Below are positions 9,737 through 63,082 of a stretch of 64,000 nt of DNA, piece by piece. Numbering within the stretch: position 1 is the first letter of the stretch; each line of letters begins with the position of its first letter. A program made the translations under genes and the position numbers. Source of the DNA: an uncultured Candidatus Saccharibacteria bacterium (GTDB taxonomy: Bacteria; Patescibacteriota; Saccharimonadia; Saccharimonadales; Saccharimonadaceae); the NCBI GenBank assembly GCA_964556125.1, contig CAZKUW010000002.1, positions 37,380 through 101,379 of the forward strand, given 5' to 3'. The notes beneath the pieces were generated by a model that saw only the letters and a list, made by a program, of their open reading frames with translations, did no database searches and was not told the origin of the DNA.

Positions 9737-9796
9737 ATCAGGTAGTTATTATACCATTCTAGAGACATTCTGTCTAACTATTTACAGAGGTGAAAC

Positions 9797-9875
9797 GAGC
9801 CCCGGCGTATGCCTGGGGCTCTATAGTGTGAGGGAGTTCCGGCGAGCGGAGCCGTCGTCATTGACGGCTCCGCTC
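9797..9875 (-). terminator. two GC-rich hairpins downstream of GC-islet gene B
   Basis: GAGCCCC..GGGGCTC (9797-9821) and a perfect 13-bp stem GAGCGGAGCCGTC-gtcatt-GACGGCTCCGCTC (9844-9875). T-runs are weak. Confidence 0.5.
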
Positions 9876-9909
9876 GGGCTCAGGGATGGGCTCGCACGAG
9901 ATGGGTGAG

Positions 9910-10176
9910 CTAGCTCACCAGCGCCAACTCTCGAATCGGCTCTTCAGCCATTTCGACAGCGACATCCGTCTCGAGTGCGACCCACAGTAGACCGCTGATG
10001 AACTGACGACGTCCGGCCACGAGTTCGCGGACGGACATCTTCAGAAGCAGCTTCGAGATCCCGTTGGCGGTGATGGCGTACTGAACCGCCACCGCCGCAT
10101 CCTGGAGGTTGTTGAAGGTTTCGCTCTCAAGAAGCAAGGTATCAACAACCTTAACGATCGGTTCCTGTGTGCTCAT
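9910..10176 (-). CDS. GC-rich islet B: hypothetical protein (88 aa)
   Basis: ATG 10176 is preceded by AGGGAG. GC-rich third codon positions in this frame. MSTQEPIVKVVDTLLLESETF.... The track ORF is extended to 10221. Confidence 0.6.
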   Translation of the reverse strand: MSTQEPIVKVVDTLLLESETFNNLQDAAVAVQYAITANGISKLLLKMSVRELVAGRRQFISGLLWVALETDVAVEMAEEPIRELALVS

Positions 10177-10223
10177 GTATCTCCCTCGTTGTGTGAATGC
10201 GGTAGTGCAGACGACAATCACTG

Positions 10224-10252
10224 ATTGTATACTATTACGACATATTTTTCAA
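10224..10252 (-). promoter_or_regulatory. promoter of islet B (TTGAAA-17 bp-TACAAT)
   Basis: Read on the minus strand: TTGAAA, a 17-nt spacer, then TACAAT, about 48 nt upstream of the ATG. Confidence 0.5.
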
Positions 10253-10317
10253 TTACGCCAAGGGTGGGGGAATAGCGTCCTGGTCAATACACCACCCATA
10301 GTGCCTCAAAGGGGTTA

Positions 10318-10346
10318 TTGACATATTTACTATAGTTTTATATACT
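10318..10346 (+). promoter_or_regulatory. rplJ-rplL promoter (TTGACA-17 bp-TATACT)
   Basis: Consensus -35 TTGACA at 10318-10323, a 17-nt spacer, and TATACT at 10341-10346. This gives a leader of about 180 nt. Confidence 0.65.
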
Positions 10347-10359
10347 CCCTAGTAGACAT

Positions 10360-10464
10360 CCCAAAGACAGTAGCTGTGGCAACACTTAATTCGCTACCGA
10401 GGTAAATGTAAAACATACATTTTTTCAGTCTTTGGCAGTGCGAGAACCAAAGACTTTTTGTTTT
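10360..10464 (+). promoter_or_regulatory. rplJ leader with terminator/antiterminator alternative pairing (L10-leader-like attenuator)
   Basis: AGTCTTTGG (10427-35) pairs with CCAAAGACT (10447-55), followed by TTTTGTTTT. An upstream CCAAAGAC (10361-68) can pair with the same 5' arm. Confidence 0.55.
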
Positions 10465-10535
10465 CTCTGGGAAAAGCTGCCTGTCTAGCATGACTTAACA
10501 ATTTGGCCGAATGAATAATAACCAAGGAGATTTTT

Positions 10536-11060
10536 ATGGCAATTACCCGCGATAAAAAGAACGAATTGGTTGCTGAAATGGGCGAACTGTTCACAAGTGC
10601 AAAAGCAACTGCTTTCGCACACTACGACGGTTTAAGTGTCGCTGACCTTCAAAAGTTACGTGCACAAGCCCGCGAAGCTGGCGTGGTTATCCGAGTGGTT
10701 AAAAACCGCTTGGTCCGCGTTGCTCTCGGTGAAGTCGAGGCATATAAAAACACTGATGTCTCAGGCCTTACTGGACAACTCCTTTACGCTATTAGCGCTG
10801 AGGATGAAGTTGCTCCCGCAAAGACCTTGAGTACATTTGCAAAAACCAATGACGCGCTTGTCATCGCTGGTGGATTTTCTAACGAAGGAGCTCTTTTGAG
10901 CGCCGCGGAAGTTACCTCACTTGCGAGCCTGCCAAGCAAGAACCAACTTATTGGCGAAGTCATTGCACAACTGCTTTCACCAGTTCACGATATCACCAAC
11001 GCACTTCAGGGCAACCTGCACGCGCTTTTGGATGGTATTGAAGCTAAAGCAACCAGTTAA
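10536..11060 (+). CDS. rplJ: 50S ribosomal protein L10
   Basis: 174 aa. AAGGAG RBS. KKNELVAEMGELF...ADLQKLRAQAREAGVVIRVVKNRL is typical of L10. Confidence 0.93.
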   Translation: MAITRDKKNELVAEMGELFTSAKATAFAHYDGLSVADLQKLRAQAREAGVVIRVVKNRLVRVALGEVEAYKNTDVSGLTGQLLYAISAEDEVAPAKTLSTFAKTNDALVIAGGFSNEGALLSAAEVTSLASLPSKNQLIGEVIAQLLSPVHDITNALQGNLHALLDGIEAKATS

Positions 11061-11096
11061 TTACATATAATTTAAAGAATTTTAAAGGAGTCACTT

Positions 11097-11471
11097 ATGG
11101 CTGATTTGAAAAAACTTGCAGAAAGCCTCGTTGGCTTGACTGTACTTGAGGTCAACGAACTCAAGACCATTTTGAAAGATGAATACGGCATCGAGCCAGC
11201 TGCTGCAGCTGTCGCTGTTGCTGGACCTGCTGCAGAAGCAGCACCTGCTGAAGAAGCAAAATCTGACTACACTATCGTCCTTAAAGACGCTGGTGCACAA
11301 AAAGTTGCTGTTATTAAGGCTGTTAAAGACATTACTGGTCTTGGCCTTGGTGAAGCAAAAGCTATCGTTGACGGTGCACCTGCAACCGTTAAAGAAAAAG
11401 CTCCTAAAGAAGAAGCTGAAGCTGCAAAGAAAACCCTCGAAGAAGCCGGCGCAACCGTCGAACTTCAATAA
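11097..11471 (+). CDS. rplL: 50S ribosomal protein L7/L12
   Basis: 124 aa. AAAGGAG RBS. An Ala/Pro hinge, then [27 protein letters not shown]...[18 protein letters not shown]. Confidence 0.95.
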
Positions 11472-11602: not shown

Positions 11603-12457
11603 ATGACAGAATTGTCCCCCCGAGTTATATACAGTCCTGAGACCAAACATCTCACTCTTCGGGCAACGCCTGACCCAGAATTTACTGATCGTATCCAGCG
11701 AGATCTTGTACTGATTGATGGTAAACCTGGATACGAAGTAGCAGAGTTGGCTGATGGCGATTTTTCACTAGACGTCGATATCGACCAAGTCATCGAAGAG
11801 AGAGACGATCCCTACGAGGGGCATTCCGCCGATGAGCTCATCGCGACACTGGGATCTTTTGGCCATCTTCACTACAAAGACCCACGTGATGGAGTCGTCT
11901 CTGTTGGAATGATCAGTAACTGGGGGCTAAAGACACCTGTTTACCATCAATTCCAATCTTGGCTCAATGAAGCAGGCCTGAACGAAGCAATTGCAAGAGA
12001 AACCATCACGAGTATGGCGCAGCCCTTTGGCACAGCGACACTACAAGAAATTATGAAATTATTTGAATATCGCGAGGGACCTCTTGGTTCTGGCGGTTTC
12101 ACTGAGGGATGGATGAAAGTCACCAGTCGACTAGAAGGGCTTAAAATGTATGACACAACGACAGAAGGCGATGCTATCACCGAACGATTGGGGAAAGCTG
12201 ATTGGCGCGTTATAGATCTTACGACTGATGGAAGTTGTGCGTGTTTCGGTTTGGATGGGAACGATAAAAGCCACATACGCGTAGATAGTGATCGCACCAA
12301 AGATCTATACGAGCTGAAACCTCACAACGTTGACCACGGCATACAGTCTCTAAGCCTGTTGCTAGGGCTGGGCAATCTTGCTCGTCATGCCGCATCCTAC
12401 ACGCCAAATCAAGACCTACTCGAGTCAGTCGAATGGTACCGACACCAAACATTCTAA
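11603..12457 (+). CDS. hypothetical protein (284 aa)
   Basis: The ORF occupies the position where rpoB usually follows rplL. TACAAT lies 6 nt before the ATG (leaderless-type start). No family recognised. Confidence 0.6.
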   Translation: MTELSPRVIYSPETKHLTLRATPDPEFTDRIQRDLVLIDGKPGYEVAELADGDFSLDVDIDQVIEERDDPYEGHSADELIATLGSFGHLHYKDPRDGVVSVGMISNWGLKTPVYHQFQSWLNEAGLNEAIARETITSMAQPFGTATLQEIMKLFEYREGPLGSGGFTEGWMKVTSRLEGLKMYDTTTEGDAITERLGKADWRVIDLTTDGSCACFGLDGNDKSHIRVDSDRTKDLYELKPHNVDHGIQSLSLLLGLGNLARHAASYTPNQDLLESVEWYRHQTF

Positions 12458-12538: not shown

Positions 12539-13057
12539 ATGTCTGACCTACCAGAGAAACAAGTAAAGCGACTTCACGCTTTAATTCAAGAAGCAGAAAC
12601 AAACCTAGCAGCTGCTAAGGAATTATTGATTAGTATCATTGGTGATGATGGCACAGTTATCACCCCAAAGACCAGCAATAACGAAGAAGTTGGCGGCAAG
12701 GTTATCGAGGGTGTGTTTGACGGTCAAAAGATGGCTGGACCTGATGGCAAAGAGTACCCTGTGCCTGCTAACTATGCCAGCAAGTCAAAGCTTGTTGAAG
12801 GCGATATTCTTAAACTGACTATTGCGGACGACGGTAGCTTCATTTACAAGCAAATTGGCCCGATCGAACGAACTCAGATTATCGGTACTCTCGTCCAACA
12901 TGACGGGGCTTATTACGTCGAAGCGAACGGAAAAGAATACCGTATCCTTCTCGCTAGTGTGACTTATTTCCGTATCAACGTTGGCGACCAAGTGACCATT
13001 ATTATCCCAACTGACAACCCAGATGCTACTTGGGCGGCTGTCGAAGCGTCACTTTAG
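12539..13057 (+). CDS. hypothetical protein (about 172 aa)
   Basis: The start is placed at ATG 12539 (MSDLPEKQ...); the track start at 12527 is a TTG. No family recognised. Confidence 0.55.
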   Translation: MSDLPEKQVKRLHALIQEAETNLAAAKELLISIIGDDGTVITPKTSNNEEVGGKVIEGVFDGQKMAGPDGKEYPVPANYASKSKLVEGDILKLTIADDGSFIYKQIGPIERTQIIGTLVQHDGAYYVEANGKEYRILLASVTYFRINVGDQVTIIIPTDNPDATWAAVEASL

Positions 13058-13062
13058 TCAGA

Positions 13063-13091
13063 TTGACTTTTACCTCTTAAAATGATATAAT
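13063..13091 (+). promoter_or_regulatory. consensus promoter of islet C (TTGACT-17 bp-TATAAT)
   Basis: TTGACT at 13063-68, a 17-nt spacer, and TATAAT at 13086-91. Confidence 0.65.
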
Positions 13092-13171
13092 CAACCTCAG
13101 CTTTTTGCGTTTCATCGCGATTGGCTTGTCCTGTGAGTTCGCTCACGCCGAAAAGTAGGAAAGCTGGGGAA

Positions 13172-13798
13172 ATGAATAGCTTGCTGTACCCGCCTCTCAT
13201 CGAGGTGGTCTCCCGCGATCGTGCCGCGATGTCGGCCCTTCGTAGCGCCCGCATCTTCCACACCGTTGGACTGACTCTCTGGAGTCGAGAGGAGCTGGTC
13301 GCCGACACAGGCGTCACGCTCACTCAGGTCCGACACATGGAGGTGGCCCTCAAGGAGGCTGGACTCGCACTGCGTCCGTACTCCTACAAGAAGGTGGACA
13401 TGGTCATTGACCAGCTGCCCGTGAACGAGACCTCGTCTGCGGAGCTGCTCCACCTGTGGTTCACCCAGAGGGAAGCGGATCTCAAGAGGAAAGATAGCGT
13501 CAGGTACTATCCCTGCGCCGTCGTCACCCTCCTGACCGCGAACCTCGGCTGCAAGACGGTCGGCGATGTCCTGGAGATCAACACCGGAGAAATTCGCCGG
13601 CTACTCCGATCGCTCACCGAAGGTCAGTGGCAGTTCTACGCGGGTCACAATCCGCGTGTACGGCGCGATGCCAGTCGAGAAGTCATCATCCCCAAGATGG
13701 TGACGAACTACTTCGACCGACTCGGCCGCTGGGGTCTCACCGAGAAGGTGAAAGTGCTGACGCACGCTTCACCGACGCCTACAAGATCGGCTCGCTGA
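13172..13798 (+). CDS. GC-rich islet C: protein with two RpoA alpha-CTD-like helix-hairpin-helix repeats
   Basis: ATG 13172 follows GGGGAA. IFHTVGLTLWSREELVADTGVTLTQVRHMEVALKEAGLAL aligns by eye with RpoA CTD [40 protein letters not shown]. A second, weaker copy is LTANLGCKTVGDVLEINTGEIRRLL. Confidence 0.6.
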   Translation: MNSLLYPPLIEVVSRDRAAMSALRSARIFHTVGLTLWSREELVADTGVTLTQVRHMEVALKEAGLALRPYSYKKVDMVIDQLPVNETSSAELLHLWFTQREADLKRKDSVRYYPCAVVTLLTANLGCKTVGDVLEINTGEIRRLLRSLTEGQWQFYAGHNPRVRRDASREVIIPKMVTNYFDRLGRWGLTEKVKVLTHASPTPTRSAR

Positions 13799-13817
13799 GC
13801 TCACCGGACATGCTGAT

Positions 13818-13833
13818 CCGCCCTCCGGGGCGG
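13818..13833 (+). terminator. GC hairpin after islet C
   Basis: CCGCCC-tccg-GGGCGG, followed by a second imperfect hairpin GTGACCCCTAG...CTAGGGATCAC. No clear T-run. Confidence 0.45.
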
Positions 13834-13963
13834 GTCGGCGTGACCCCTAGAAACAGGTGAAAACGTGTTACTAGGGATCACTTGCAAAAGCAACACATAA
13901 GCACTATAGTAGGTGTATCACTGAGGTGAAAACAAAAAAGGGTGACCAAATTAGGGGATTAGT

Positions 13964-19868: not shown

Positions 19869-19939
19869 ATATAGTACTTTAATGGTATAAATACCATTAA
19901 GCCTCATCCCGTAGGTCTATCGATTCCCTTGGAGGAAAA

Positions 19940-20599
19940 GTGTTCCGTACCATCTTTGGCAAGCGCTGGCTGCAGACTCATATCTACATGACCCGCATGT
20001 TGGATAACGCCATCGAGCACCGCTACGAGAAGCACAGCGTCCTCATCGGAACGCTGCTCCTCGTCGCCGCTCTCAGTGTCGTGCCGCTCTCCGTCTACGG
20101 ACTTCAGTCCGGCAGCTTCGGGCCCGACCTGGCGTTTCTGCTGGCAGTCATCGGCCTGTTCTGCGTCTACATCGGCGTGCACAATCTTCGGATTCGCCGT
20201 GTCCACGAGATCCTGATCAAGAACTCCACGAGTGAGTGGCGCTACCGCTACCTCTTCAGTGAAGACGACTTGATCTACCAGTCGATCATGTTCCCGTCCT
20301 ACGTCGAGTACCTGGACGGACGAGATCGCGAGAGCATCAACATGGAGGCTTGGTGTATCCTCCAGGACTACGCGCGTTCGGCGCTCGACCACTGGGAGAT
20401 CATCAACATCGAGATGGCGCACCCCGATTGCAGTGACTCCGAGAGAATACAACTCGAGGAAGAGCAACAGGAGTACATCCATTCGATCGCCCATGCGGCT
20501 GGAATCCGCATCGCCGCACTGCTGGGACTCGATCCGGGCTCGTTCTTCAGAGACCGTGCTCGGATGATCGTCAAGAGCCGGCGACCCAACAACAAGTAG
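19940..20599 (+). CDS. GC-rich islet D: two-TM membrane protein (219 aa)
   Basis: GGAGGA RBS followed by GTG 19940. GC3-rich in this frame. TM helices VLIGTLLLVAALSVVPLSVYGL and LAFLLAVIGLFCVYIGV are followed by a soluble C-terminal domain. Confidence 0.6.
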   Translation: MFRTIFGKRWLQTHIYMTRMLDNAIEHRYEKHSVLIGTLLLVAALSVVPLSVYGLQSGSFGPDLAFLLAVIGLFCVYIGVHNLRIRRVHEILIKNSTSEWRYRYLFSEDDLIYQSIMFPSYVEYLDGRDRESINMEAWCILQDYARSALDHWEIINIEMAHPDCSDSERIQLEEEQQEYIHSIAHAAGIRIAALLGLDPGSFFRDRARMIVKSRRPNNK

Positions 20600-20614
20600 A
20601 CCACGGAGACGGCT

Positions 20615-20660
20615 CAGGCGTCTGGCACGAACGGTACCCCCGATCGTTGCCAGGCGCCTG
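20615..20660 (+). terminator. GC-rich hairpin after islet D
   Basis: CAGGCGTCTGGCA...(20 nt)...TGCCAGGCGCCTG: a 13-bp stem with one G.U pair, followed by TCTTCAATTT. Confidence 0.45.
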
Positions 20661-20688
20661 TCTTCAATTTCTGTTACAATAAGACCCA

Positions 20689-21684
20689 ATGTTCGATAAA
20701 GCAAAAAATCTTATTACCGAGGCAAAAAAAATTGTCATCATTCAAGCTGAAAACCCTGACGGTGATTCTCTTGGTAGTGCACTGGGCTTAGAAGAAATTT
20801 TAGGTGATCTTGGCAAAGAAGTCAGCCTCTACTGCGACGTCGAGACCCCAAAATACCTCCGCTACATAAACGGCTGGGATCGTGTCAGCCAAGACTTTGA
20901 TACGTCCGCTGATCTTGCTATTATCGTCGACACCAGCAGTGAGACACTTATCGGAAAATCATTGGACATACCAGGTGTGCGTCATTTCTATGAAACCCAC
21001 CCAGTTCTTGTGATTGACCACCATAATCTTGTTGAATCAACTCTAAGCTTTGAACACACGCTCTTAAACGAAAAGGCTGTTGCTGCCGGTGAACTACTGT
21101 ATTACATGGCAAAAGATGCTGGATGGGCTATCAACCCTGCAGGCGCTGAAGCGATGCTCGCCGGAATCTTATCAGATAGCCTCGGGCTTTCGACTCAAAA
21201 CACTACTGCAGAGTCATATGAAGCCGCAGCGGGCCTTGTCCGCCTCGGAGCTGACCCTCACGCACTCGAATCACGTCGTCGTGAGTTTATGAAAAAGTCA
21301 GCTGAGATTCTTGCCTACAAAGGACGTCTGCTCGAACGAATCGAGTATTTCCTCGACGGGAGACTCGCCCTTATTCATGTGCCCTGGGAAGAGATCCAAG
21401 AATTTAGCGATCAGTATAATCCGAGTGTCCTTGTGCTCGATGAAATGCGTCTCGTTGAAGGGGTGCAGTTAGCAATTGCTATCAAGACCTACCCTGATGG
21501 TAAACTCACCGGTAAACTCCGCAGTAATGCACCGATTTCAGAACAAGTCGCTGGTTTCTTCGGTGGTGGCGGCCATGCATATTCTGCAGGCTTCCGTGTC
21601 TTCGAAGAATATGACAAAATAATTTCAGAATTACTAACAGCTACAGACAAGGCTCTCAACAATCATGACGCTTCGCTTTCATAA
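20689..21684 (+). CDS. DHH/DHHA1 phosphoesterase (NrnA-like)
   Basis: ENPDGDSLGS, IVDTS, VIDHH and GGGGHAYSAG motifs. Confidence 0.8.
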   Translation: MFDKAKNLITEAKKIVIIQAENPDGDSLGSALGLEEILGDLGKEVSLYCDVETPKYLRYINGWDRVSQDFDTSADLAIIVDTSSETLIGKSLDIPGVRHFYETHPVLVIDHHNLVESTLSFEHTLLNEKAVAAGELLYYMAKDAGWAINPAGAEAMLAGILSDSLGLSTQNTTAESYEAAAGLVRLGADPHALESRRREFMKKSAEILAYKGRLLERIEYFLDGRLALIHVPWEEIQEFSDQYNPSVLVLDEMRLVEGVQLAIAIKTYPDGKLTGKLRSNAPISEQVAGFFGGGGHAYSAGFRVFEEYDKIISELLTATDKALNNHDASLS

Positions 21685-42117: not shown

Positions 42118-42130
42118 GGACACGGGCGTG

Positions 42131-42760: not shown

Positions 42761-42840
42761 CTGCTCTCTTTCTAGGTGGGTGGATGTGCTGCCATGATCG
42801 AATCTTGGAAGCACGACACCAGCCCAGAAAGAGTACTATA

Positions 42841-42869
42841 GTTATACTAACAACCCTTTATAAGGTCAA
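42841..42869 (-). promoter_or_regulatory. promoter of islet G (TTGACC-17 bp-TATAAC)
   Basis: Read on the minus strand: TTGACC, a 17-nt spacer, then TATAAC. Confidence 0.45.
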
Positions 42870-42888
42870 CCTTAAACGAAATAGAGTA

Positions 42889-47395: not shown

Positions 47396-47443
47396 TGGTA
47401 TAGGACAGGAGACTTCATCTTCACATAGTTGGCAAGAAGTAAT

Positions 47444-47788
47444 TTAGAAACCTCCTGTTAGCTGATCGCTCGGCTTAACACACTTTTCGTGAACATCCAG
47501 GACTGGATATCGCTTTTTTGTCCAAGCAACATACAGTGGATGAACTTCGTAATCTATTTTGTCCTCAAGTGCCCATGAGCCTTCGCCCTGATGAATTAAT
47601 TCACCGCATTTTGCACAAACTCGATGATTATGAAACCAATGAAAGTGCATGCCTTCACGTTCTGCTTCCTTTTTTAAATTTGGAGCTTTTTCAAAGAAAT
47701 CAGGATCGTTCAATCGAACCCTGATAACTATATCTTTGTCACAATATTCGCAACGTTTAACTACCTGATAAACAGTCCTCAAAAACAT
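47444..47788 (-). CDS. small zinc-ribbon protein (114 aa; CxxC...CxxC, His-rich)
   Basis: The start is placed at ATG 47788, 1 nt after the upstream stop. CEYCDK...HFHWFHNHRVCAKCGELIH. The HNH-like resemblance is weak. Confidence 0.5.
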   Translation of the reverse strand: MFLRTVYQVVKRCEYCDKDIVIRVRLNDPDFFEKAPNLKKEAEREGMHFHWFHNHRVCAKCGELIHQGEGSWALEDKIDYEVHPLYVAWTKKRYPVLDVHEKCVKPSDQLTGGF

Positions 47789-47789
47789 T

Positions 47790-49118
47790 TCATTCCTGGC
47801 CGATACCCAAAGACACTTCAAGGTAACTAACGTAATTCTCTAAATTCTTGATTAACTCATCAAAAAGAACGATATCTATGTTGCTATAAGTTGTCTTGAG
47901 CTTCTTAATCTCTTTTTCAAGCCGCGCGGTTAATTCATCGTCAGCAGCGTCTGAAGTAATATGGTCTCTTGAGGAGATGATTAATATGCCTCTAGGTCGA
48001 TAGATCTTATCATTTTCAATAAGCGATTTCGTATAATCGTCCTTAATCTTGGATGTATCAATATTTTCCATGCGCATATCCATATACTTATTGAGCTGGA
48101 AAATAGATTTGTTTAATTCACTGGACGGATAGTAGGAGTCACGTCCAGTTTCTTTTCGGAATAGAATTGCTCGATGTGTCTTTATTTCAATGATATCCAC
48201 ATTGTTATAAATATCCACTGCCAAGAAGTCTGGTCGGGTTTCCTTGTCGTAGCCTTTCATAGGCTTGAATACAGTTTGTGGGTAAAACTCTTTATAACTC
48301 ATTAACAAAACTCGGAGGTATTTCTCAAAATACAATTGCCAGCATGACTCAAGAGTCTTACGCTCCTCGCCAAGAACTTTTTTGGAGATGGATTTTATTT
48401 TTGTTTTATTACCAGTCAACTCAAGGAGTTCTCTGCCAATCTTAATGATTTCTCGAATACTTTCTTTATACAGAGGGAGTGTTTCACTCAGAGTAAGCTT
48501 ATATGCGCCCTCTTTGATCTGGTCATCCATAAAATTCTTAATGAATGTTCTGTCACCTTTACTTAGGGTAAGATACTTACCCTCAAACCCCTTAACAACG
48601 TAGCCAACATTGGCGAAAATGGCGGATGTATCGATGTCGGAACTATCGGTAGCATTAAATTTGTCGCGAACTATCTTCGAAGTTTTTGTCCGAATTTTTT
48701 TTACTTTATTTAAGTGATCGAGATAATTGTCGTATTTGGCCATATCAATCACCGTTACATCAGCAACTTCATATCCGGCTGGGATACTGGTAATAAAGCT
48801 CAGATAAGGATTCTGAATTGCTTGCAGCTCAGAAAATTCTTTTAGCTCCTTCTTTAGGGTAAAGTTTTCGAAAGATATGTATTTTTCATACTCGGATAAG
48901 TTACGCTTATCAAGAAAAGCGTGTGTGAAATATTCTGTCCTTTGAGCAATTTGGTCTCGAGTATTGCGTTGGCCGTTCTGATATACACTGTCCAGTCTAC
49001 GAACATTGTAGAGTTTCGCAACAACAGTATTTCCTTGATCGCTAAGTAGAGGAGACTCACCCCAGTTATTCTCAAAAGCTTCTGATTTTTCATGTAATTG
49101 CTCTTCGTTCATATTCAC
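47790..49118 (-). CDS. sduA: Shedu-like defence nuclease (DUF4263 / PD-(D/E)xK C-terminal domain)
   Basis: RPDFLAVDIYNNVDIIEIK (D...ExK), SIFQLNKY, RPRGILIISSRD and IDIVLFDELI match the DUF4263 pattern. The N-terminal half (about 270 aa) is unassigned. Confidence 0.7.
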   Translation of the reverse strand: MNMNEEQLHEKSEAFENNWGESPLLSDQGNTVVAKLYNVRRLDSVYQNGQRNTRDQIAQRTEYFTHAFLDKRNLSEYEKYISFENFTLKKELKEFSELQAIQNPYLSFITSIPAGYEVADVTVIDMAKYDNYLDHLNKVKKIRTKTSKIVRDKFNATDSSDIDTSAIFANVGYVVKGFEGKYLTLSKGDRTFIKNFMDDQIKEGAYKLTLSETLPLYKESIREIIKIGRELLELTGNKTKIKSISKKVLGEERKTLESCWQLYFEKYLRVLLMSYKEFYPQTVFKPMKGYDKETRPDFLAVDIYNNVDIIEIKTHRAILFRKETGRDSYYPSSELNKSIFQLNKYMDMRMENIDTSKIKDDYTKSLIENDKIYRPRGILIISSRDHITSDAADDELTARLEKEIKKLKTTYSNIDIVLFDELIKNLENYVSYLEVSLGIGQE

Positions 49119-49130
49119 ATTATACGACTA

Positions 49131-49157
49131 AAATCAAATGAGACCCCTATGGGTCTC
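49131..49157 (-). terminator. terminator downstream of tRNA-Gln
   Basis: Read on the minus strand: GAGACCC-atag-GGGTCTC followed by ATTTGATTT. Confidence 0.65.
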
Positions 49158-49175: not shown

Positions 49176-49191
49176 TGGCTGGGGATGAGGG
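49176..49191. repeat. att-like repeat, proximal copy (tRNA-Gln 3' end)
   Basis: TGGCTGGGGATGAGGG. See 46670-46685. Confidence 0.6.
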
Positions 49192-49249
49192 ATTCGAACC
49201 CCCGATATCGGGACCAGAACCCGGTGCCTTACCACTTGGCCAATCCCCA
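49176..49249 (-). tRNA. tRNA-Gln (anticodon CUG), CCA encoded
   Basis: TGGGGATTGGCCAAGTGGTAAGGCACCGGGTTCTGGTCCCGATATCGGGGGTTCGAATCCCTCATCCCCAGCCA. The 7-bp acceptor stem, the GGTTCGAATCC T-arm and the anticodon loop TTCTGGT fold by hand, and the sequence is close to E. coli tRNA-Gln. Confidence 0.9.
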
Positions 49250-49354: not shown

Positions 49355-50938
49355 ATGAATAGGCTGAGGCGGGGCTTTACATTAATAGAACTTATCGTAG
49401 TGATTGCCGTCATCGGCATCCTTGCGACTATTACTGTTGTCGGACTCTCTCGTTACCAAGCAGACACTCGTGATGCGCGAAGGACTTCGAGCGTCAGCGT
49501 TATCTCAGAAGCTCTCGAAAAATATTATGATCTGAATGGTGAATACCCGGGCTGTAATGCGTTGCAACAAAGCGGGGCAATTGTCGCTACAGACACGCTC
49601 AAAGGCATTAGTTCATCAACACTGGTCACTCCTCAAGCAGACAACAGTACTACGAACTCAATCAGCTGTACAACCGTCACGACAAACGGCACCGATATCA
49701 TCGAATATCAAGGTGATGGTAGTAGTACCTGTAGTTCAGGGACGTCATGTCTGTCTTATACACTGCGCTACAAAGAAGAGGGAACAGGCACAATTAAAGA
49801 GGTTAAGAGTCGACGAACAACAGACATTGCGACTTCTGGTGATTCGACAATCAGCCTGGGTAACGTCAGCTTTACTCGTATCGTCGTCCTATGGACTCCC
49901 GTTGCCAACGCTGCGTCATATGATCTCGAAACAAACGGTGTCATCTCTTCAGTAACGGGTGTATCCACTATCTTGACTGGTCTCCCGATGAATACTGGCT
50001 ACACTTTCAAAATTCGTCCAGTCGGATCTGGTGGAGCTGGTGCGTGGTCAAACGTCGTTAGCACAACGACTCTTAACCTTGCAGCCCCAGTAGTAACCGC
50101 TACGGGCAATACCGCAACGAATTACACCGCAGCATGGAGTCCTATCACAAATGCAACTGCATATAATGTCCAATGTTCGACCGACAACGTCACTTGGGGA
50201 ACTGGGTGTCAGCAAACAACCTCAAGTACCAGTTACACATTTACTAACGGTTCAATGGCGACTCGATACTATGTCCGTGCTCAGGCAATCAACACTACTG
50301 CTGCGGATGCTCCTCAGGCCGGAAACTGGTCGGCCTCAGCAAACACCTATACGACCGTGACCGCACCGGCAACTTACACCATATCTTCAAGCACCCCAGC
50401 ATGGAACACACTTCAGGCAACCAGTAATGCGGTCTGTACTGGAAGTTCTGTTCCACAATATGTATGGTACGCCAATGGATCGGTATGGGCCGGAGCGACA
50501 ACTCAAACCGTTACCTATACCCTGAGTTGGAACCAGAGCGTCACTTTGTCAGTCAACACTCGTTGTACTTTGAACGGTCAAAATAGTACCTACACCACCT
50601 CAACCAACACAGCTAGTCGATCACTCCCTGGTCCGACAGCATGGGCAGGAAACTGTGCTAGCCGTACCGCTTGTTGGGATGGAAGCTGTCCTGCAGGAAC
50701 AACCAGTGGCTACATTAACTGGCGGGTTAACTCGGCTGTACAAGGAAACCCGTGGGTCTCAAGTAACGCCGGAGTAGGGTATGGAACATGGGCTGCAACT
50801 GGTTCCACATGGGGAGATGGTGACGTACGGTCAACAACCTATTGTTCAGGTCCTTGGGGAACAGTCACTGCGAGCGGATGGGGTCCATTCGGCTCAGGGT
50901 GTGTCCCAACAATCGTATCGGGATGGTGTACTGTCTAA
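49355..50938 (+). CDS. giant type IV pilin-like protein with FN3-like repeat(s) and a Cys-rich C-terminal domain
   Basis: Prepilin signal MNRLRRG/FTLIELIVVIAVIGILA (Gly-1, Phe+1, Glu+5). FN3-like block SFTRIVVLWTPVANAASYDL...GYTFKIRPV. 527 aa. Confidence 0.85.
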   Translation: MNRLRRGFTLIELIVVIAVIGILATITVVGLSRYQADTRDARRTSSVSVISEALEKYYDLNGEYPGCNALQQSGAIVATDTLKGISSSTLVTPQADNSTTNSISCTTVTTNGTDIIEYQGDGSSTCSSGTSCLSYTLRYKEEGTGTIKEVKSRRTTDIATSGDSTISLGNVSFTRIVVLWTPVANAASYDLETNGVISSVTGVSTILTGLPMNTGYTFKIRPVGSGGAGAWSNVVSTTTLNLAAPVVTATGNTATNYTAAWSPITNATAYNVQCSTDNVTWGTGCQQTTSSTSYTFTNGSMATRYYVRAQAINTTAADAPQAGNWSASANTYTTVTAPATYTISSSTPAWNTLQATSNAVCTGSSVPQYVWYANGSVWAGATTQTVTYTLSWNQSVTLSVNTRCTLNGQNSTYTTSTNTASRSLPGPTAWAGNCASRTACWDGSCPAGTTSGYINWRVNSAVQGNPWVSSNAGVGYGTWAATGSTWGDGDVRSTTYCSGPWGTVTASGWGPFGSGCVPTIVSGWCTV

Positions 50939-53188: not shown

Positions 53189-54490
53189 ATGCCTAAAAAA
53201 AATTTGCCCATTGTCACCGCCACACTCGAAAAAATAGTCGGGGGTGGTCAAGCTATGGGGACCATGGAAGATGGTCGTAAACTGTTCGTCTGGGGAGGAC
53301 TTCCCGGTGAGACTGTTGAAGTACAACTGACAAAAAAGAAGTCAAAACTTGCCGAAGGCTACGTGACCTCTGTGATGAAAGCGAGCAAAGAACGTGTTGA
53401 ACCACGCGATCCCGAGAGCTTCCTTTCAACGAGCCCATGGCAGATCATGAGCCTCGAGACCGAGCAGACCTACAAAGCAGCACTTATTAAGGAGGCTTTT
53501 GACCTTCATAACGTCACACTTCCTAACGAAATCTCTCTTTTCACCAACGGACAAGAATATGAATACCGCAACAAAGTCGAATTCAGCTTTTGGGTTGATG
53601 CCGATACCCGCCAACTCGATCTCGCTTTCTTTCGGCGCGGCACTCATGGCAAGATTCCCATCACTGGCACTTCGCTTGCACATCCAGCGATTAATACAGC
53701 TGGCCAAGCGATTCGTGATCTCTTAATCAAAAAGGGGATTAGTGGGTTTGATCTGAAGACATTATTGATCCGTTGCGATGCAGAAGGAAATGTCGTTGCG
53801 CAACTCTATGTGAAAACAGAAGAATTCCGTCGCCCTTCAGATCAAGACCTTAAAGCGTTGCCGATTAAAGGATTTGAACTTATCTTTAGTAATCCGAAAA
53901 GTCCAGCTAGCGTGATCACGAAAACACTATTTAGTTGGGGAGACATCGTGCTCTCTGATACGATCCTAGACATTCCTTTCACTTATGCAACAGAAGGCTT
54001 TTTCCAGATCAATCTACCTGTCTACACTCAAGCCCTGATCGACATGAAAGAGTGGATCCCGGCTGAAAAGTCTGTAGTAGACCTATACAGTGGCGTCGGT
54101 TCAATTGGTCTGACGATTGGTGGTAAAAAAGTCACGCTCGTCGAGCTTAATGAGTCTGCCGTCCGAGAGATGAAAGAAAATATCACCGCTCTGAAGCGCA
54201 ATAGCGAAGCGACAGCGGTGCTTGCTGCAAGCGAAAAAGCTCTGGAGTACATTACTTCGAATGACACTATCATTGTCGATCCACCTCGTGCTGGTCTCCA
54301 CCAAGATGTCGTTGAACGTCTGCTTTCCGAGCTGCCAGAGCGTATTATTTATCTGTCGTGCAACCCGGTCACTCAAGCACGAGATGTCATGCTCCTAAAG
54401 GAACACTATGAGATCAAAGCCCACCAAGGTTATAACTTCTTCCCTCGCACTCCCCACATTGAAAATCTCGTTATTTTAGATAAAAAATAA
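53189..54490 (+). CDS. RNA (uracil-5-)-methyltransferase, RumA/TrmA family
   Basis: An N-terminal TRAM-like domain, then DLYSGVGSIGL, VDPPRAGL and YLSCNP. Confidence 0.8.
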   Translation: MPKKNLPIVTATLEKIVGGGQAMGTMEDGRKLFVWGGLPGETVEVQLTKKKSKLAEGYVTSVMKASKERVEPRDPESFLSTSPWQIMSLETEQTYKAALIKEAFDLHNVTLPNEISLFTNGQEYEYRNKVEFSFWVDADTRQLDLAFFRRGTHGKIPITGTSLAHPAINTAGQAIRDLLIKKGISGFDLKTLLIRCDAEGNVVAQLYVKTEEFRRPSDQDLKALPIKGFELIFSNPKSPASVITKTLFSWGDIVLSDTILDIPFTYATEGFFQINLPVYTQALIDMKEWIPAEKSVVDLYSGVGSIGLTIGGKKVTLVELNESAVREMKENITALKRNSEATAVLAASEKALEYITSNDTIIVDPPRAGLHQDVVERLLSELPERIIYLSCNPVTQARDVMLLKEHYEIKAHQGYNFFPRTPHIENLVILDKK

Positions 54491-54519
54491 ACCCACCAAT
54501 CGGTGAGTGTTGTGACGAG

Positions 54520-54560
54520 GCGCGCAGCCTGAGCGGGCCCGAAGGCCCACCCAGACGCGC
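54520..54560 (-). terminator. GC-rich nested hairpin after islet H
   Basis: GCGCG...GGGCC-cgaa-GGCCC...CGCGC. A T-run occurs only further downstream (54481-54491 on the minus strand). Confidence 0.4.
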
Positions 54561-54564
54561 ACCT

Positions 54565-54927
54565 CTAGAGGGGGTGAGACTGCTTCTCATGCTCGATCTT
54601 GTGCTGGATCAGTCCCTTGATGATGTCCACGAACGCGAACAGCACCATGGCCCAGACCACGAACACGAGGACAGCCTCGATGAACGTGAGCCAGATGACA
54701 GCGTCGTTGACGTCGTCGCGACGGATGAAGTTGGCGAACGCGACGTACACGTCGAGATCCTTCATCTGCGCTCCGAGCCAGACAGCGCCGAGCATGGCGA
54801 TCCATCCGAAGATGGGGATGACGAGATGCAACGAGTGCGTCATGCGTCCCCAGATCGTCAGGCCGATCAGCAGGAAGCCAGCGAACAGCGCCAGCTTCGT
54901 TGCCCCTACAATCCACGCCGGGTCCAT
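54565..54927 (-). CDS. GC-rich islet H: small three-TM membrane protein (120 aa)
   Basis: AGGAGG RBS 4 nt before the ATG. GC3-rich codons. TM helices ATKLALFAGFLLIGLTIW, LVIPIFGWIAMLGAVWLGA and VIWLTFIEAVLVFVVWAMVLFAFV. Confidence 0.7.
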   Translation of the reverse strand: MDPAWIVGATKLALFAGFLLIGLTIWGRMTHSLHLVIPIFGWIAMLGAVWLGAQMKDLDVYVAFANFIRRDDVNDAVIWLTFIEAVLVFVVWAMVLFAFVDIIKGLIQHKIEHEKQSHPL

Positions 54928-54964
54928 AGCTCCTCCTTAGGGGTAGTGGTGGTCGTGTAAATAT

Positions 54965-54993
54965 ATTATAGCATAAATACTTTGAAAATTCAA
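54965..54993 (-). promoter_or_regulatory. promoter of islet H (TTGAAT-17 bp-TGcTATAAT)
   Basis: Read on the minus strand: TTGAAT, a 17-nt spacer ending in TGC, then TATAAT. Confidence 0.6.
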
Positions 54994-56444: not shown

Positions 56445-58121
56445 ATGCGCAAGCTTACGTGGGGCTTTACACTTGTTGAATTAATTGTCGTCATTGCAAC
56501 AATCGGTATCTTAGCGACGATTTCAGTTATTGGACTGAGTCGCTACCAAGCAGACACGAGAGACGCTCGCCGCGTGGCGAGCGTTAGTGTTATATCTGAA
56601 GCACTCGAAAAATATTACGATGCAAACGGGGAATACCCTAGCTGTAGTTCGATAAAGGCACCTGCGGCCACGCTGACAACGACCACTCTCAATGGTGTTG
56701 ATCAAACCGCCCTGGTTGCCCCTCAGGCTGCCCCAGCAATCGACAACTCTCTCCAATGTACCAGTGATGGTAATAGTTTATCGGTCAATGGGACCGATTT
56801 CTTTGAATATACAGGCGACAATAGTGTGGCTTGTAACGGGACAGTGTCTTGTCTTCAGTATTCTTTAAAATATAAAGAAGAATCAACGGGAAGTATTAAA
56901 ACTGTTTCAAGCCGGCGTAACACCTCCATCGCTACTTCTGGAGCTGCCACTCTCTCCGCATCAACAACCAGCTTTACTAACGTCAATCTCTCTTGGACAA
57001 CAGTACAAAATGCTAGTGCATACGTCCTACAGGTCAGTACTGCTTCGAGTTTCCCGAATGATTCATCAACTCAAACGGTAAGTGGCATCAACGGCACTAC
57101 GTACAACGCAACCGGGCTTACAGCTGGAGTTTCATATTTCTTCCGCGTGAGGTCTGATGCGCTCAGTAGTACAGGAAACTGGTCAAACACACTTCCCGTA
57201 ACGACGTTAACCCTTGGTGCGCCAGGAAGCTGTTCGGCAACAGCGAACTCGAGCTCACAGATCACCGCTGGCTGTAACACCGTTGCGAATGCTTCTACTT
57301 ATGACGTTGACTACTCAACTTCAAGCACCTTTGCCTCAGGCGTCGTATCAACTACGAACTTAAGCACACCAAGCTATGTCGCGTCGGGACTGGCGACAGG
57401 AACACAATATAGTTTCCGTATTCGTGCCGTGGCACCGACCTATACTGGCCCATGGTCATCAACATTCAATGCGACGACTACCGTTCCGACACCAACAGGA
57501 TTAGCGCTCGCAGTCAATTCTTCAAGCCAAATCACCGCAACCTGGACGGCTGTATCGGTCGCGACGTCATACTCGATCGATTACTCTATCAACTCAAACT
57601 TTACCTCATCAACGACAATCAATAATATCTCGGGCACCTCACGAGTCGTCACTGGACTCCAACAAGGTCGCACCTGGTATTTCCGTGTCTCCGCTAACGT
57701 CGGAAGTGTTCCGAGCGCCCCATCAGCTGGTGTCAGCGCAACGACAACGCTCGATACACCAAATAGCCTTAGCTTTGGTGCGGCTCGTCCAGCCGGCGTG
57801 TACTCTACAGGAAACTCAAACTGGCTTCCAGGACAAAACTTCTCTGAAGGATCTGGTAACTATTACTATGCCTATGGATCAGTCAGTGGCGGATGTCCGT
57901 CAGGTTCGAGTATGGCGGTCTGGATGCGCGGTCGCTATAACTCACCAACGACTTGGTACTCAGCAAACTGGACGTATCAGCCAACCTGGGTCATTATCTC
58001 ACCGACAAGCGGCTATCAAGCAATATTCGAAGCCTACGCACGCTGTGATGGTCCAAACACTTCATCAGCTCAGGTGTATCTCGGCACTCGCTGTATTACA
58101 GCAGGGAATGTAGGTTGCTAA
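56445..58121 (+). CDS. giant type IV pilin-like protein with three FN3-like repeats (paralog of 49355..50938)
   Basis: MRKLTWG/FTLVELIVVIATIGILA. The first 60 or so residues are nearly identical to pilin 1. Three repeats follow the pattern ...W..V..A..Y.......F......(Y/W)(F)FR(V/I).... Confidence 0.85.
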   Translation: MRKLTWGFTLVELIVVIATIGILATISVIGLSRYQADTRDARRVASVSVISEALEKYYDANGEYPSCSSIKAPAATLTTTTLNGVDQTALVAPQAAPAIDNSLQCTSDGNSLSVNGTDFFEYTGDNSVACNGTVSCLQYSLKYKEESTGSIKTVSSRRNTSIATSGAATLSASTTSFTNVNLSWTTVQNASAYVLQVSTASSFPNDSSTQTVSGINGTTYNATGLTAGVSYFFRVRSDALSSTGNWSNTLPVTTLTLGAPGSCSATANSSSQITAGCNTVANASTYDVDYSTSSTFASGVVSTTNLSTPSYVASGLATGTQYSFRIRAVAPTYTGPWSSTFNATTTVPTPTGLALAVNSSSQITATWTAVSVATSYSIDYSINSNFTSSTTINNISGTSRVVTGLQQGRTWYFRVSANVGSVPSAPSAGVSATTTLDTPNSLSFGAARPAGVYSTGNSNWLPGQNFSEGSGNYYYAYGSVSGGCPSGSSMAVWMRGRYNSPTTWYSANWTYQPTWVIISPTSGYQAIFEAYARCDGPNTSSAQVYLGTRCITAGNVGC

Positions 58122-62300: not shown

Positions 62301-62640
62301 TGCCCTGAGTTGGAAGGGAAGTGATGATAATGAGAAAATTAAACTTCACAAATACCGCCAACAACTGATGTTCTACCATCTAATGATCAAGTCATCTCGT
62401 GATTATAGTAACTACACCGCCGAAATTGGCAAACTCGCATTTATCGAGCCGACAAAGTCAGGCGAAATCTCAACGCTTGAAATGTCTTTTGAAAAAGAAG
62501 AACTCGATCGATTTGAACGCTTGATCGGGAAGATCTGGGAACGAATCATCAATCTTGATCTGCCTGATGTTTCAGGATTTGATACATCATATAAGGGCGT
62601 CTTAGCGTTCGAAGAAGCACTCCTTGATGGTAGCGCTTAA
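59362..62640 (+). CDS. UvrD/PcrA-type helicase fused to a C-terminal PD-(D/E)xK nuclease (AddA/RecB-like)
   Basis: AGPGTGKTE (Walker A), VDEFQDTN, VGDDDQAIYSFQGA and TAHRSKGLEF. The C-terminal GMIDVVDID...IVTDYKTGKP...YRQQLMFYHLM is a RecB-type nuclease motif. Confidence 0.85.
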   Translation: MRVMNFSERYKQLNTAQKEAVDHIDGPVMVIAGPGTGKTELLSVRTANILAKTDTLPSSILCLTFTESGAAAMRQRLVGIIGKDAYKVAIHTFHSFGTEVINQNREYFYHGALFEPADDLSRYEILRGIFDELDYKNPLASTMNGEYTHQPDATKVISELKRSGLTSDELLAVLDASESALDTAEALIAPILSGTVSVKVRDALQAALPELLVAAERSETLFEIPPLARVIYDGLVSAIELSQVDHPTKPITAWKKKWLVKNEKGEFIFKSRNYLAKLRSLTFVYYEYLSRMEQAGLYDYDDMILQVVHAMEVHDELRFNLQEKYLYIMVDEFQDTNLAQMRILHNLTDNPANEGAPNVLVVGDDDQAIYSFQGADISNILRFKEIYPSASLVTLKDNYRSGEAIISESREVIVQGEDRLENKVVDLNKELTPQQSINAQVELMHAPTIESERHWLVSSISKAIQNGTKPADIAVLTRRHFEIQGLLPYFQDAGIAISYDRQENVLEQPPIVALELLATVVVSLSNGEHDVANSLLPRLLAHPAWGITPKELWELSTTAYQSRERWLDVMATTPRFLDIHSWLIELAALSQQLALEPMIDRLIGRSEEATYPSPFFEYFFAKEKLLETPSAYLDCLAALRTIRSHLREYRPKDQPTLSSFIEFIVLHRRLGSNLMVAHARLEGDDNAVNLMTAHRSKGLEFDTVYIFNSVDNVWGEKALSRSRSINYPENLTLADAGGSADERLRLFYVAMTRAKKRLVMSYSDSNDTGKSTLIASFLSEKAGEAKDILDHSERDSVKAAELAWYAPLVEPSVDLKKILAPTLQNYKLSVTHLNAFIDISRGGPQHFLLDHLLHFPSAKSASASYGSAIHATLQQAHVHLAATGEQKPLEDILRDFEVNLSNQRLSPLDYSTYHQKGSEQLQAFLAVKYDEFKRTEKSELNFSGQEAMLGEAHLTGMIDVVDIDEKRKSMIVTDYKTGKPALSWKGSDDNEKIKLHKYRQQLMFYHLMIKSSRDYSNYTAEIGKLAFIEPTKSGEISTLEMSFEKEELDRFERLIGKIWERIINLDLPDVSGFDTSYKGVLAFEEALLDGSA

Positions 62641-62643
62641 CTA

Positions 62644-62672
62644 TTGACGTAACACCTTAAAAATGCTATATT
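62644..62672 (+). promoter_or_regulatory. promoter of islet I (TTGACG-17 bp-TGcTATATT)
   Basis: TTGACG at 62644-49, a 17-nt spacer ending in TGC, and TATATT at 62667-72, immediately after the helicase stop. Confidence 0.55.
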
Positions 62673-62849
62673 AGTAGACGCATTGATCGAGGACGTGAGA
62701 CGTGGATGAAAATCTATTTGTATCTATATCCCACGTCCTCTCAAGCACCTGAACAGAGATGGAAATGGTATCTTTCGCCCCATGACGATAGGTAGGTTGC
62801 TTACGAGTGACCATTGAGACTTCGGTCTCGAATTCACCGAACGAAAGGT

Positions 62850-62993
62850 ATGGCCATGGCCACAACCTGCAACGGCTGTTGCGAGCGCTGCAGCGGTAGC
62901 TCGCAGCGTTCCCACGGTGGTACCGGCACCTGCAACGGTAGCTGCCGGGGATCCGGGCACACTCCCTACTGCACGGCGACCCACAAGACGTAG
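62850..62993 (+). CDS. GC-rich islet I: 45-47 aa Cys/His-rich peptide (not in the ORF track)
   Basis: Hand translation gives M-A-MATTCNGCCERCSGSSQRSHGGTGTCNGSCRGSGHTPYCTATHKT*. Seven Cys, three His, and TCNG(C/S)C occurs twice. 38 of 47 codons end in G or C, against about half in the competing 86-aa antisense ORF. AAAGG lies 7 nt before the second ATG (62856). Confidence 0.5.
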   Translation: MAMATTCNGCCERCSGSSQRSHGGTGTCNGSCRGSGHTPYCTATHKT

Positions 62994-63082
62994 ACTTTAC
63001 GTCGCGTCGCTAAGAGCACGAGGAGAAGACGGACAGGACGGTCGCAAGACCCCCTGTAAAAACAGTAGCTCCATCTCTGTTC

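Follow-up and report, generated by a model that had tools for sequence, protein, structure and literature searches.

Eight single-gene islets, designated B to I, stand out by their GC content in the window analysed here, a 64,000-nucleotide stretch of contig CAZKUW010000002.1 (positions 37,380 to 101,379 of the forward strand, assembly GCA_964556125.1) from an uncultured Candidatus Saccharibacteria bacterium. Our preferred reading, to which we give a probability of about one half, is that these islets are native, fast-evolving accessory cassettes that keep their silent sites rich in G and C in situ, selection on the messenger RNA (mRNA) being the most plausible cause. A preliminary description of this DNA, made from the letters and a list of reading frames, had hypothesised piecemeal acquisition from a high-GC donor such as an actinobacterial host.

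Composition and architecture of the islets

All eight segments picked out in the preliminary description stand out in sliding-window GC, with peaks of 0.52–0.63 at B to I against a window mean of 0.465, and its hand counts of G+C (40 of 60 at 41471-41530 and 25 of 60 at 42891-42950) are exact. The islets themselves have a GC content of 0.57–0.63. The excess is almost entirely synonymous. As had also been noticed, G and C are concentrated at the third codon position, in one frame per islet. The G+C content at third positions (GC3) is 0.63–0.68 in B, 0.72 in C, 0.78–0.80 in D, 0.83 in E, 0.93 in F, 0.69 in G, 0.85–0.87 in H and approximately 0.8 in I, whereas backbone genes range from 0.34 to 0.50 with a pooled value of roughly 0.44. 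First positions differ far less (GC1 approximately 0.60 in the islets and 0.56 in the backbone), and second positions are alike (GC2 approximately 0.39 in both, with an islet range of 0.34–0.46). Pooled over the islets, position 3 is composed of.07 A,.47 C,.33 G and.13 T, compared with.25 A,.27 C,.17 G and.31 T in the backbone, and the codons TTC, ATC, AAC, TAC, AAG and CAG each make up 91–96% of their own codon family. The slight GC1 rise is accompanied by a Lys-to-Arg shift. Amino-acid usage is otherwise backbone-like (Ala 7.4%, Ile 6.7%, Asn 3.5%) and looks non-actinobacterial when set against figures that we take to be typical of Actinobacteria.

High GC3 opens long shadow frames on both strands, and every islet contains long open reading frames (ORFs) in several frames and in both orientations; the preliminary claim of exactly one ORF per segment therefore does not stand. 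One frame per islet is supported, that of E by a match to Pfam Hexapep, that of F by a protein family, and those of B and C by orthologues. Substitutions in the sense frames of C, D, E and F are most frequent at position 3, less so at position 1 and least so at position 2, which identifies the antisense ORFs as shadows and rules out antisense or dual coding as the cause of the low silent divergence reported below. We also considered whether the islets could be structured RNA genes, in analogy to those that stand out in AT-rich thermophiles. This was rejected because the codon periodicity is protein-like and no Rfam family falls within the islets: at gathering thresholds Rfam returned only the L10 leader and one tRNA, and the E-F-G and I regions gave no match at E ≤ 1.

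Public records (NCBI, Logan) hold the antisense ORF for both E (P0026, 207 amino acids, 39373-39996 on the plus strand) and F (P0027, 178 amino acids, 41464-42000 on the plus strand), so that the real proteins are invisible to homology searches. For D, whose antisense shadow lies at 19904-20704 on the minus strand, neither frame was found in the protein collection under the start codons tried. As the records for E and F illustrate, gene callers mis-annotate GC3-rich genes, and in mid-GC genomes such genes appear to be mis-called systematically.

Each islet comprises one ORF of 47–219 codons behind a leader of 40–190 nt. By pattern matching, sigma-70-like promoters (TTGACx-17-TATAAT-like) precede seven of the eight, five of them with a TG-extended -10 element, and GC-rich hairpins, one or two per unit, lie 3' of all eight ORFs, where the preliminary description had claimed them for most. 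Its further claim of Shine-Dalgarno (SD) sites in most segments needs an exception in E, whose TTG start is preceded by none. The leaders of F, G and I carry stem-loops at or near the 5' end, and the 5' untranslated regions (5' UTRs) of the islets are, by eye, not GC-rich. The islets are dispersed singly between housekeeping genes, as had been described, with rplJ, tk, recR, nrnA, ksgA, tsaC, a DEAD-box helicase gene and dus as flanks. A repeat scan likewise agrees with the earlier account in finding no consistent flanking repeats; Pfam, PHROG and NCBIfam searches of the islet proteins gave no recombinase match, and no systematic search for integrases or transposases was made. The sole tRNA gene of the window (49176-49249) adjoins no islet. 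As integron cassettes the islets would be atypical, being scattered singly and mostly equipped with promoters of their own.

Scans for duplexes between the 5' and 3' ends of the units reached modest significance only for F, some F relatives and I. A shared GTCCGAAGT box was rejected as a common element, since it is confined to the terminators of F and G and the window shows no enrichment for it. A GCTCA(C) motif occurs 0–15 nt past the stop codon in B, C, D, E and F (at 9905-9910, 13799-13804, 20612-20616, 39398-39403 and 41465-41469, respectively); the window averages roughly one GCTCA per 720 nt, which puts its presence in five of the eight islets far above chance.

Homologues, slot conservation and silent-site divergence

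The islet genes appear, from homology searches, to be restricted to Saccharibacteria. Among 5.8 billion clusters G matched only itself, D has no homologue in the protein collection (not even itself), and the single homologue of C is in a sister member of the Saccharibacteria. B, C, F and G have no match in Pfam, NCBIfam, PHROGs or PADLOC, and no islet homologue was found in IMG/VR, INPHARED phages, PLSDB plasmids, JGI metagenome contigs, PHROGs or BFVD. A phage, plasmid or defence origin was rejected, PHROGs, PADLOC, IMG/VR, INPHARED and PLSDB together yielding only a trivial 26% hexapeptide match. Our literature search brought up no account of GC3-rich genes in Saccharibacteria or Patescibacteria. 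The cell itself had been suspected to be Saccharibacteria-like, and this is what we find: most of the 40 loci retrieved with KsgA (40669-41391) are labelled as Saccharibacteria or Saccharimonadales, the best at 87% identity, and the genome is Microsaccharimonas-like.

Saccharibacteria have Actinobacteria as known hosts and are also known for DNA uptake. A recent transfer of single genes from a cellular donor of high GC, such as an actinobacterial host, would account for an islet codon usage that resembles that of high-GC Actinobacteria (C- and G-ending codons exceed 90% in two-fold families) and for the variable presence of D, G and H. We regard such a transfer as very unlikely. Actinobacteria are heavily sampled, yet no homologue in a high-GC context was found among the 5.8 billion clusters and 1.84 billion representatives, and all F relatives whose contigs were read (n = 5) lie in mid-GC DNA. 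Furthermore, the Ala and Ile frequencies and GC2 are those of the backbone, and syntenic orthologues keep their high GC3 past the point of silent-site saturation. With no high-GC homologues, backbone-like amino acids and a composition kept across the clade, the proposal of a recent high-GC or actinobacterial donor is largely refuted. The islets do share with genomic islands an atypical composition and codon usage, a patchy distribution among relatives and accessory or orphan genes. They differ in being single genes without an adjacent tRNA or consistent direct repeats (integrases were not searched for), in lacking donor homologues, in their native amino-acid composition and in showing no sign of amelioration in syntenic orthologues. 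In addition, genomic islands are more often AT-rich, whereas the islets are GC-rich.

The composition of the islets was compared across several relatives. Sister genome GCA_028286445.1 (L048) is collinear with the window over 3.3-24.3 kb; its backbone proteins are mostly 82–99% identical to those of the window, and the backbone synonymous divergence (dS) exceeds 1. B and C are kept there, B as an orthologue with 61% amino-acid identity and GC3 0.71, and C as its sole homologue P0012, 82% identical, in the same slot and with GC3 0.70. The closest relative, ERZ27249406 (contigs L050, L052 and L055), carries C, D, E and F at a GC3 equal to that in the window, with amino-acid identities of 96% (C, L055), 90% (D, L050, GC3 0.80), 90% (E, L052, same slot, GC3 0.82) and 89% (F, L052). 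Finally, in locus L001 (KsgA 87% identical), silent sites of the backbone are saturated (third positions differ at 55–59% of identical residues); the E orthologue, again in the same slot, is 48–49% identical in amino acids, with neighbours at 41–54%, and has a GC3 of 0.68–0.70. E thus occupies one slot in three genomes at GC3 0.83, 0.82 and 0.70. Because high GC3 is kept in these slots while the silent sites of the backbone have fully turned over, it appears to be a property that the islet genes maintain, as opposed to a trace of recent import that is wearing off. Five of the genes (B, C, D, E and F) recur across the clade with the same base composition; the preliminary description had named such conservation, for all eight genes, as speaking against its own hypothesis. 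GC3-rich single genes also occur at other Saccharibacteria loci, often beside ksgA, and are mutually unrelated.

The piecemeal character of the islets, in contrast to their proposed source, is well supported. D is missing from L048, where the gap between recR and nrnA is 45 bp; G is missing from L052, where tsaC and the F promoter lie 15 nt apart; H is missing from L054; and in the B and I slots the allele has been replaced. Fast evolution alone was rejected as a cause of the bias, since GC3 is normal in g40124, g38844, 4779-5543 and 11603-12457, neighbours that evolve as fast or are as variable. An assembly or binning chimera, for which only the sharp compositional boundaries would speak, is extremely improbable. 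The E-F-G junctions are 100% identical in two independent Logan assemblies of other runs, and five of the islets (B, C, D, E and F) recur in the same slots in genomes recovered from other samples, which shows that the islets are not chimeras.

Divergence from ERZ27249406 was then considered at the nucleotide level. Backbone genes have dS values of 0.36–1.46 and ratios of nonsynonymous to synonymous divergence (dN/dS) of 0.003–0.11. The islets have a silent divergence 2–10-fold below that of their neighbours and a higher dN: dS is 0.076 for F (neighbours 0.73–1.1), 0.115 for E (neighbours 0.49–0.62), 0.127 for C (neighbour 0.80) and 0.20 for D, with dN/dS of 0.68, 0.38, 0.15 and 0.22, respectively. 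Islet DNA, including promoters, leaders and terminators, is 92–98% identical, versus 77–91% around it, and in E and F, both of the islets examined in this respect, the low-divergence tracts coincide with the transcription units. At four-fold degenerate sites every class of change is roughly 3.3-fold rarer in the islets. C-to-G exchanges in either direction are as depleted as the others (8 observed, 26 expected). Selection or conversion that targets GC content and nothing else cannot account for this; a base-pairing constraint, a local drop in mutation rate or a more recent common ancestor of the islets is called for to explain the low dS.

A younger common ancestor is what one would expect if the islets were moron-like cassettes from an unsampled GC-rich mobile pool, repeatedly inserted and swapped and recently exchanged between lineages, with high GC3 as the signature of the pool. 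We consider this possible, if on balance unlikely. It would fit the presence or absence of D, G and H and the allele replacements in B and I between otherwise collinear genomes, the seemingly self-contained promoter-ORF-terminator architecture and the occurrence of F-family members at three or more different loci. The decrease of all silent classes by the same factor of approximately 0.3 is also that of a shorter divergence time, exchanges between strong and weak bases (S/W) number 26 where about 33 are expected under the backbone mutation spectrum, and an imperfect direct repeat flanks G. However, no homologue was found in the phage, plasmid and viral-fold collections named above (IMG/VR, INPHARED, PLSDB, PHROGs, BFVD), the repeat scan gave no consistent flanking repeats (recombinases were not searched for systematically), and amino acids are used as in a mid-GC genome. 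E, B and C have retained a high GC3 while diverging at the pace of their neighbours beyond silent-site saturation, which would require repeated replacement at the same site from a pool that itself escapes decay, and the low-divergence tracts of E and F stop at the edges of the transcription unit.

The comparison with phage morons is nonetheless instructive. Like morons, the islets are single ORFs, with predicted hairpin terminators and, in seven of eight, a predicted sigma-70-like promoter of their own; they sit between conserved genes, are atypical in composition and variably present, and have accessory-looking products. Unlike morons, they belong to a cellular chromosome, without a prophage around them and without phage homologues, and their compositional shift is confined to silent sites and kept in the slot over long divergence. 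The islets therefore resemble known moron-like atypical orphan cassettes and are set apart from them by a purely synonymous, maintained signature.

Folding of the mRNAs and the cause of the codon bias

Folding of the mRNAs was scored as the z-value of the minimum free energy against synonymous-codon shuffles, either plain or dinucleotide-preserving. With plain shuffles the islet ORFs of the window scored -5.3, -4.4, -4.1, -2.7, -1.6, -1.4 and -0.2 (mean -2.8), whereas 39 backbone genes had a mean of -0.5. With dinucleotide-preserving shuffles the means were -2.5 for the window islets and -0.4 for 44 backbone genes, and a set of 22 GC3-rich genes (the 7 window islets and 15 from relatives) averaged -2.2. 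The difference from the backbone is significant by Mann-Whitney test, with p = 8e-4 for the window islets and p = 1e-5 for all 22. Among backbone genes, the strongly structured ones include rplL and dnaB. Conserved structures add to this picture, namely a 5' hairpin in the F family, a leader stem in G, and a hairpin and 5'-3' bracket with covariation in the I slot.

Separately from the islets, rplJ and rplL (10536-11471) have dS values of 0.083 and 0.022 against the closest relative, where nearby genes have 0.4–0.8, and their mRNAs are over-folded, with z = -2.8 and -3.9 against plain and -1.3 and -4.7 against dinucleotide-preserving shuffles. An L10 leader (Rfam RF00557) is located at 10343-10469. 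The GC3 of rplJ and rplL is 0.42 and 0.29; G/C endings are thus not the expression-optimal codons here, and translational selection for high expression was rejected as the cause of the islet bias.

If mRNA selection holds the islets in place, the mechanism might run as follows. G/C-ending codons would give heavily base-paired mRNAs, which 5' stem-loops, 5'-3' pairing and terminator hairpins would cap at their ends. Such capped and paired transcripts may be long-lived or resistant to nucleases, and purifying selection on the pairing would slow silent changes of every kind. The islet proteins, among them membrane, beta-helix and Cys-rich proteins and novel folds, evolve quickly, with slots gaining, losing and swapping ORFs one by one, which suggests roles at the cell surface or in conflict. 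Selection for mRNA structure is known from bacterial coding regions, and the leaders of ompA and aprE are 5' stem-loops that stabilise their mRNAs. The islets share with these systems the over-folding relative to shuffles, the 5' and strong 3' hairpins and the reduced silent divergence. They differ in that the effect is limited to a small class of orphan genes with an extreme GC3 shift.

Several points weigh against mRNA selection as the cause. A uniform, approximately threefold drop in silent divergence fits a younger common ancestor or a locally lower mutation rate equally well. D and some members of the F family show little or no excess folding (z of about 0 to -1.4), and GC3-rich coding sequence might in general produce some of the z shift. 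Moreover, rplJ and rplL are structured and low in dS at their ordinary GC3, so structure does not need GC-rich codons. We infer mRNA selection as the source of the GC3 bias, and an equilibrium of GC3 is argued from the conservation of the slots.

A different process that could raise GC3 in place is recombination. The islets might be recombination hot spots in a naturally competent lineage, where GC-biased repair of heteroduplexes drives unconstrained sites to G/C, and where transformation homogenises the slots between close relatives and sometimes imports distant alleles. This would account for a high GC3 accompanied by the slight GC1 rise and the Lys-to-Arg shift, for low divergence from close relatives with raised dN/dS, for indels, and for the B slot of L055, in which a 34%-identical allele sits between flanks that are 88–97% identical in DNA; the mosaic of backbone dS from 0.36 to 1.46 points the same way. 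We find it quite doubtful all the same. We know of no bacterium in which conversion bias is documented at the strength that a GC3 shift from 0.44 to 0.93 would demand. The 5' UTRs within the units do not look GC-rich by eye, and variable neighbours, 11603-12457 among them, lack a high GC too; an excess of folding over synonymous shuffles is not predicted, and it is not explained why recombination should stop at transcription-unit boundaries.

A more far-reaching version of native maintenance, which we offer as speculation and hold to be rather improbable, is that Saccharibacteria keep "hardened" expression slots (a conserved promoter, a 5' stem-loop and a 5'-3' clamp) that take up variable, GC-recoded orphan ORFs. 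Codon composition would then be a regulatory layer that marks a functional class of genes and not a record of ancestry. GC-recoded transcripts might outlast conditions that destroy or silence AU-rich mRNAs, such as nuclease attack. Alternatively, they might be read by pure Watson-Crick pairing with G34 or C34 tRNAs where certain tRNAs or wobble modifications run short, as could perhaps happen while cells disperse or attach to a host.

Horizontal gene transfer is the routine reading of atypical composition, and this inference fails here, where the signal is synonymous, clade-restricted and kept in place. If maintenance by mRNA-level selection were to hold genome-wide, such selection would define a gene class in Saccharibacteria, and perhaps in further ultra-small symbionts, and this class would provide a short list of candidates for host interaction or conflict among their orphan genes. 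It would also mean that composition-based screens for horizontal transfer over-call host transfer in these lineages.

The individual units and other features of the window

The B unit (9793-10252, minus strand) has a promoter-like site at 10224-10252, the ORF at 9910-10176 and hairpins at 9846-9873 and 9793-9821. Its product of 88 amino acids has no family match, and its mRNA is among the most folded (z = -5.3 and -3.4). The C unit (13063-13881, plus strand) starts with the promoter TTGACT-17-TGATATAAT at 13063-13091, followed by the ORF (13172-13798) and hairpins at 13818-13833 and 13840-13881. The product is an all-helical protein of 208 amino acids without a family match. The label "alpha-CTD-like HhH" previously attached to it is not borne out, as there was no match in Pfam or NCBIfam and no PDB sequence match below E = 0.3; its AlphaFold2 model, with a predicted local distance difference test score (pLDDT) of 49, was too poor for a fold search. 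The D unit (19931-20670, plus strand) consists of an SD site and GTG start at 19931-19942, the ORF at 19940-20599 and a long hairpin at 20615-20670, with no recognisable promoter of its own. Two transmembrane helices are predicted in its product of 219 amino acids, in agreement with the preliminary description.

E was correctly recognised as a hexapeptide beta-helix protein. The unit (39346-40089, minus strand) has the promoter TTGACT-17-TGATAAAAT at 40061-40089, the ORF at 39412-40020 and a hairpin at 39346-39380. Its product of 202 amino acids forms a left-handed beta-helix of hexapeptide repeats, matches Pfam Hexapep at 2.9e-19 (68 bits, cut-off 27) and is encoded by DNA with 18-nt periodic repeats. 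PDB sequence matches are to the beta-helices of LpxD, LpxA and GlmU. Membership of a defined enzyme family (LpxA, LpxD, GlmU, CysE and others) was not found, the best NCBIfam score being 69.6 bits against a cut-off of 207 and the others falling far below theirs. E therefore shares the Pfam family, the repeat period and the helix matches of known hexapeptide proteins, and differs from them as a stand-alone helix with no recognisable catalytic or nucleotide-binding domain.

The F unit (41411-42052, minus strand) includes the promoter TTGACT-17-TGCTATAAT at 42024-42052, a 5' UTR hairpin at 41965-41990, the ORF at 41470-41943 and a terminator at 41411-41459. The product has 157 amino acids, and its AlphaFold2 model (pLDDT 87) found no fold match in the PDB or BFVD. 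Eight full-length relatives and one fragment were recovered from the 1.84 billion representatives, a tenth, weak and partial match in a protein of 856 amino acids being set aside; no further F-family loci were found in JGI metagenomes. The relatives show 25–39% identity, and the five with read contigs have GC3 values of 0.86–0.95, GC2 of 0.36–0.44 and flanks of 0.44–0.51 GC. Two relatives lie at dprA|topA and two others adjoin the same NADH dehydrogenase (NDH) gene; identity within each pair is approximately 35%, and the TopA and NDH fragments beside them are about 80% identical as judged by eye, not by computation. All five read relatives have in common the promoter type and the 5' UTR hairpin TCCAAGGyTCC-GNRA-GGAACyTTGGACA, and the three contigs that reach past the stop codon contain a related terminator. 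The hairpin (window 41965-41990, minus strand; also L043-L047 and L052) has a GNRA-like loop, lies just 5' of the SD site and has no Rfam match. The 5' arm of the hairpin is found again at the terminator foot (CCAAGGTTCC, two copies in L044), so pairing between the 5' and 3' ends is possible.

Next to F, the G unit (42077-42869, minus strand) has a promoter-like TTGACC-17-TATAAC at 42841-42869, a leader hairpin (42766-42833) that spans the 5' UTR up to the SD site, the ORF at 42131-42760 and a terminator at 42077-42117. It encodes an orphan of 209 amino acids, and its mRNA folds with z = -4.1 and -3.8. The imperfect direct repeat TTCGTT(T)A(A/T)GG at both ends of G (42870-42885 and 42065-42080, minus strand) could be an insertion trace or merely reflect similar terminator feet. 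The H unit (54481-54993, minus strand) comprises the promoter TTGAAT-17-TGCTATAAT at 54965-54993, the ORF at 54565-54927 and hairpins at 54522-54560 and 54481-54505. Its product of 120 amino acids has three predicted transmembrane helices, as stated earlier. Scores for MscL stay below threshold (Pfam 20.8 bits versus 27.4, NCBIfam 18.8 versus 142). The H slot of L054 is occupied by an unrelated gene of normal GC for 146 amino acids on the other strand.

The I unit (62644-63124, plus strand) has the promoter TTGACG-17-TGCTATATT at 62644-62672, a 5' hairpin at 62689-62740, the ORF at 62850-62993 and a further hairpin at 63083-63124. The ORF, which encodes a Cys-rich product of 47 amino acids, is bracketed by a perfect 13-nt inverted repeat (62751-62763 and 63070-63082). 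In the L054 slot (12600-13260) the promoter and 5' hairpin are kept, with compensatory changes, and a perfect 15-nt inverted repeat of other sequence occupies the equivalent position around a non-homologous ORF for a helical protein of 73 amino acids with GC3 0.84. The inverted repeat could form a 5'-3' RNA clamp or be a site of DNA inversion or cassette exchange. Inverted repeats around a short segment are also seen in invertible DNA switches, and 5'-3' pairing of the RNA explains them equally well.

Other compositional features of the window are of a different kind. An AT-rich stretch at 47400-49150 (0.36-0.39 GC), the opposite kind of compositional island, holds a 442-codon ORF (47790-49118, minus strand) and a 125-codon ORF and adjoins the tRNA-Gln(CTG) gene at 49176-49249. 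Two ORFs on the plus strand, at 49355-50938 and 56445-58121, have an unusually high GC2 of 0.62 and 0.59 and probably encode Thr/Ser/Ala/Pro-rich surface proteins; the L054 counterpart of the latter carries N_methyl (type IV pilin-like) and fn3 Pfam domains. Gene content also varies outside the islets. The 284-codon ORF at 11603-12457 (plus strand, normal GC) is missing from L048 and L055, the 254-codon ORF at 4779-5543 (minus strand, normal GC) is replaced in L048, and the closest relative has an extra gene for 504 amino acids between VIT1 and tsaC (L052, 874-2388). Finally, thyA (5684-6670) is 65% identical to its counterpart in L048 (3076-3993), whereas the adjacent dhfr, dcd and tmk are 85–99% identical, which suggests that thyA was replaced by a divergent copy in one lineage.

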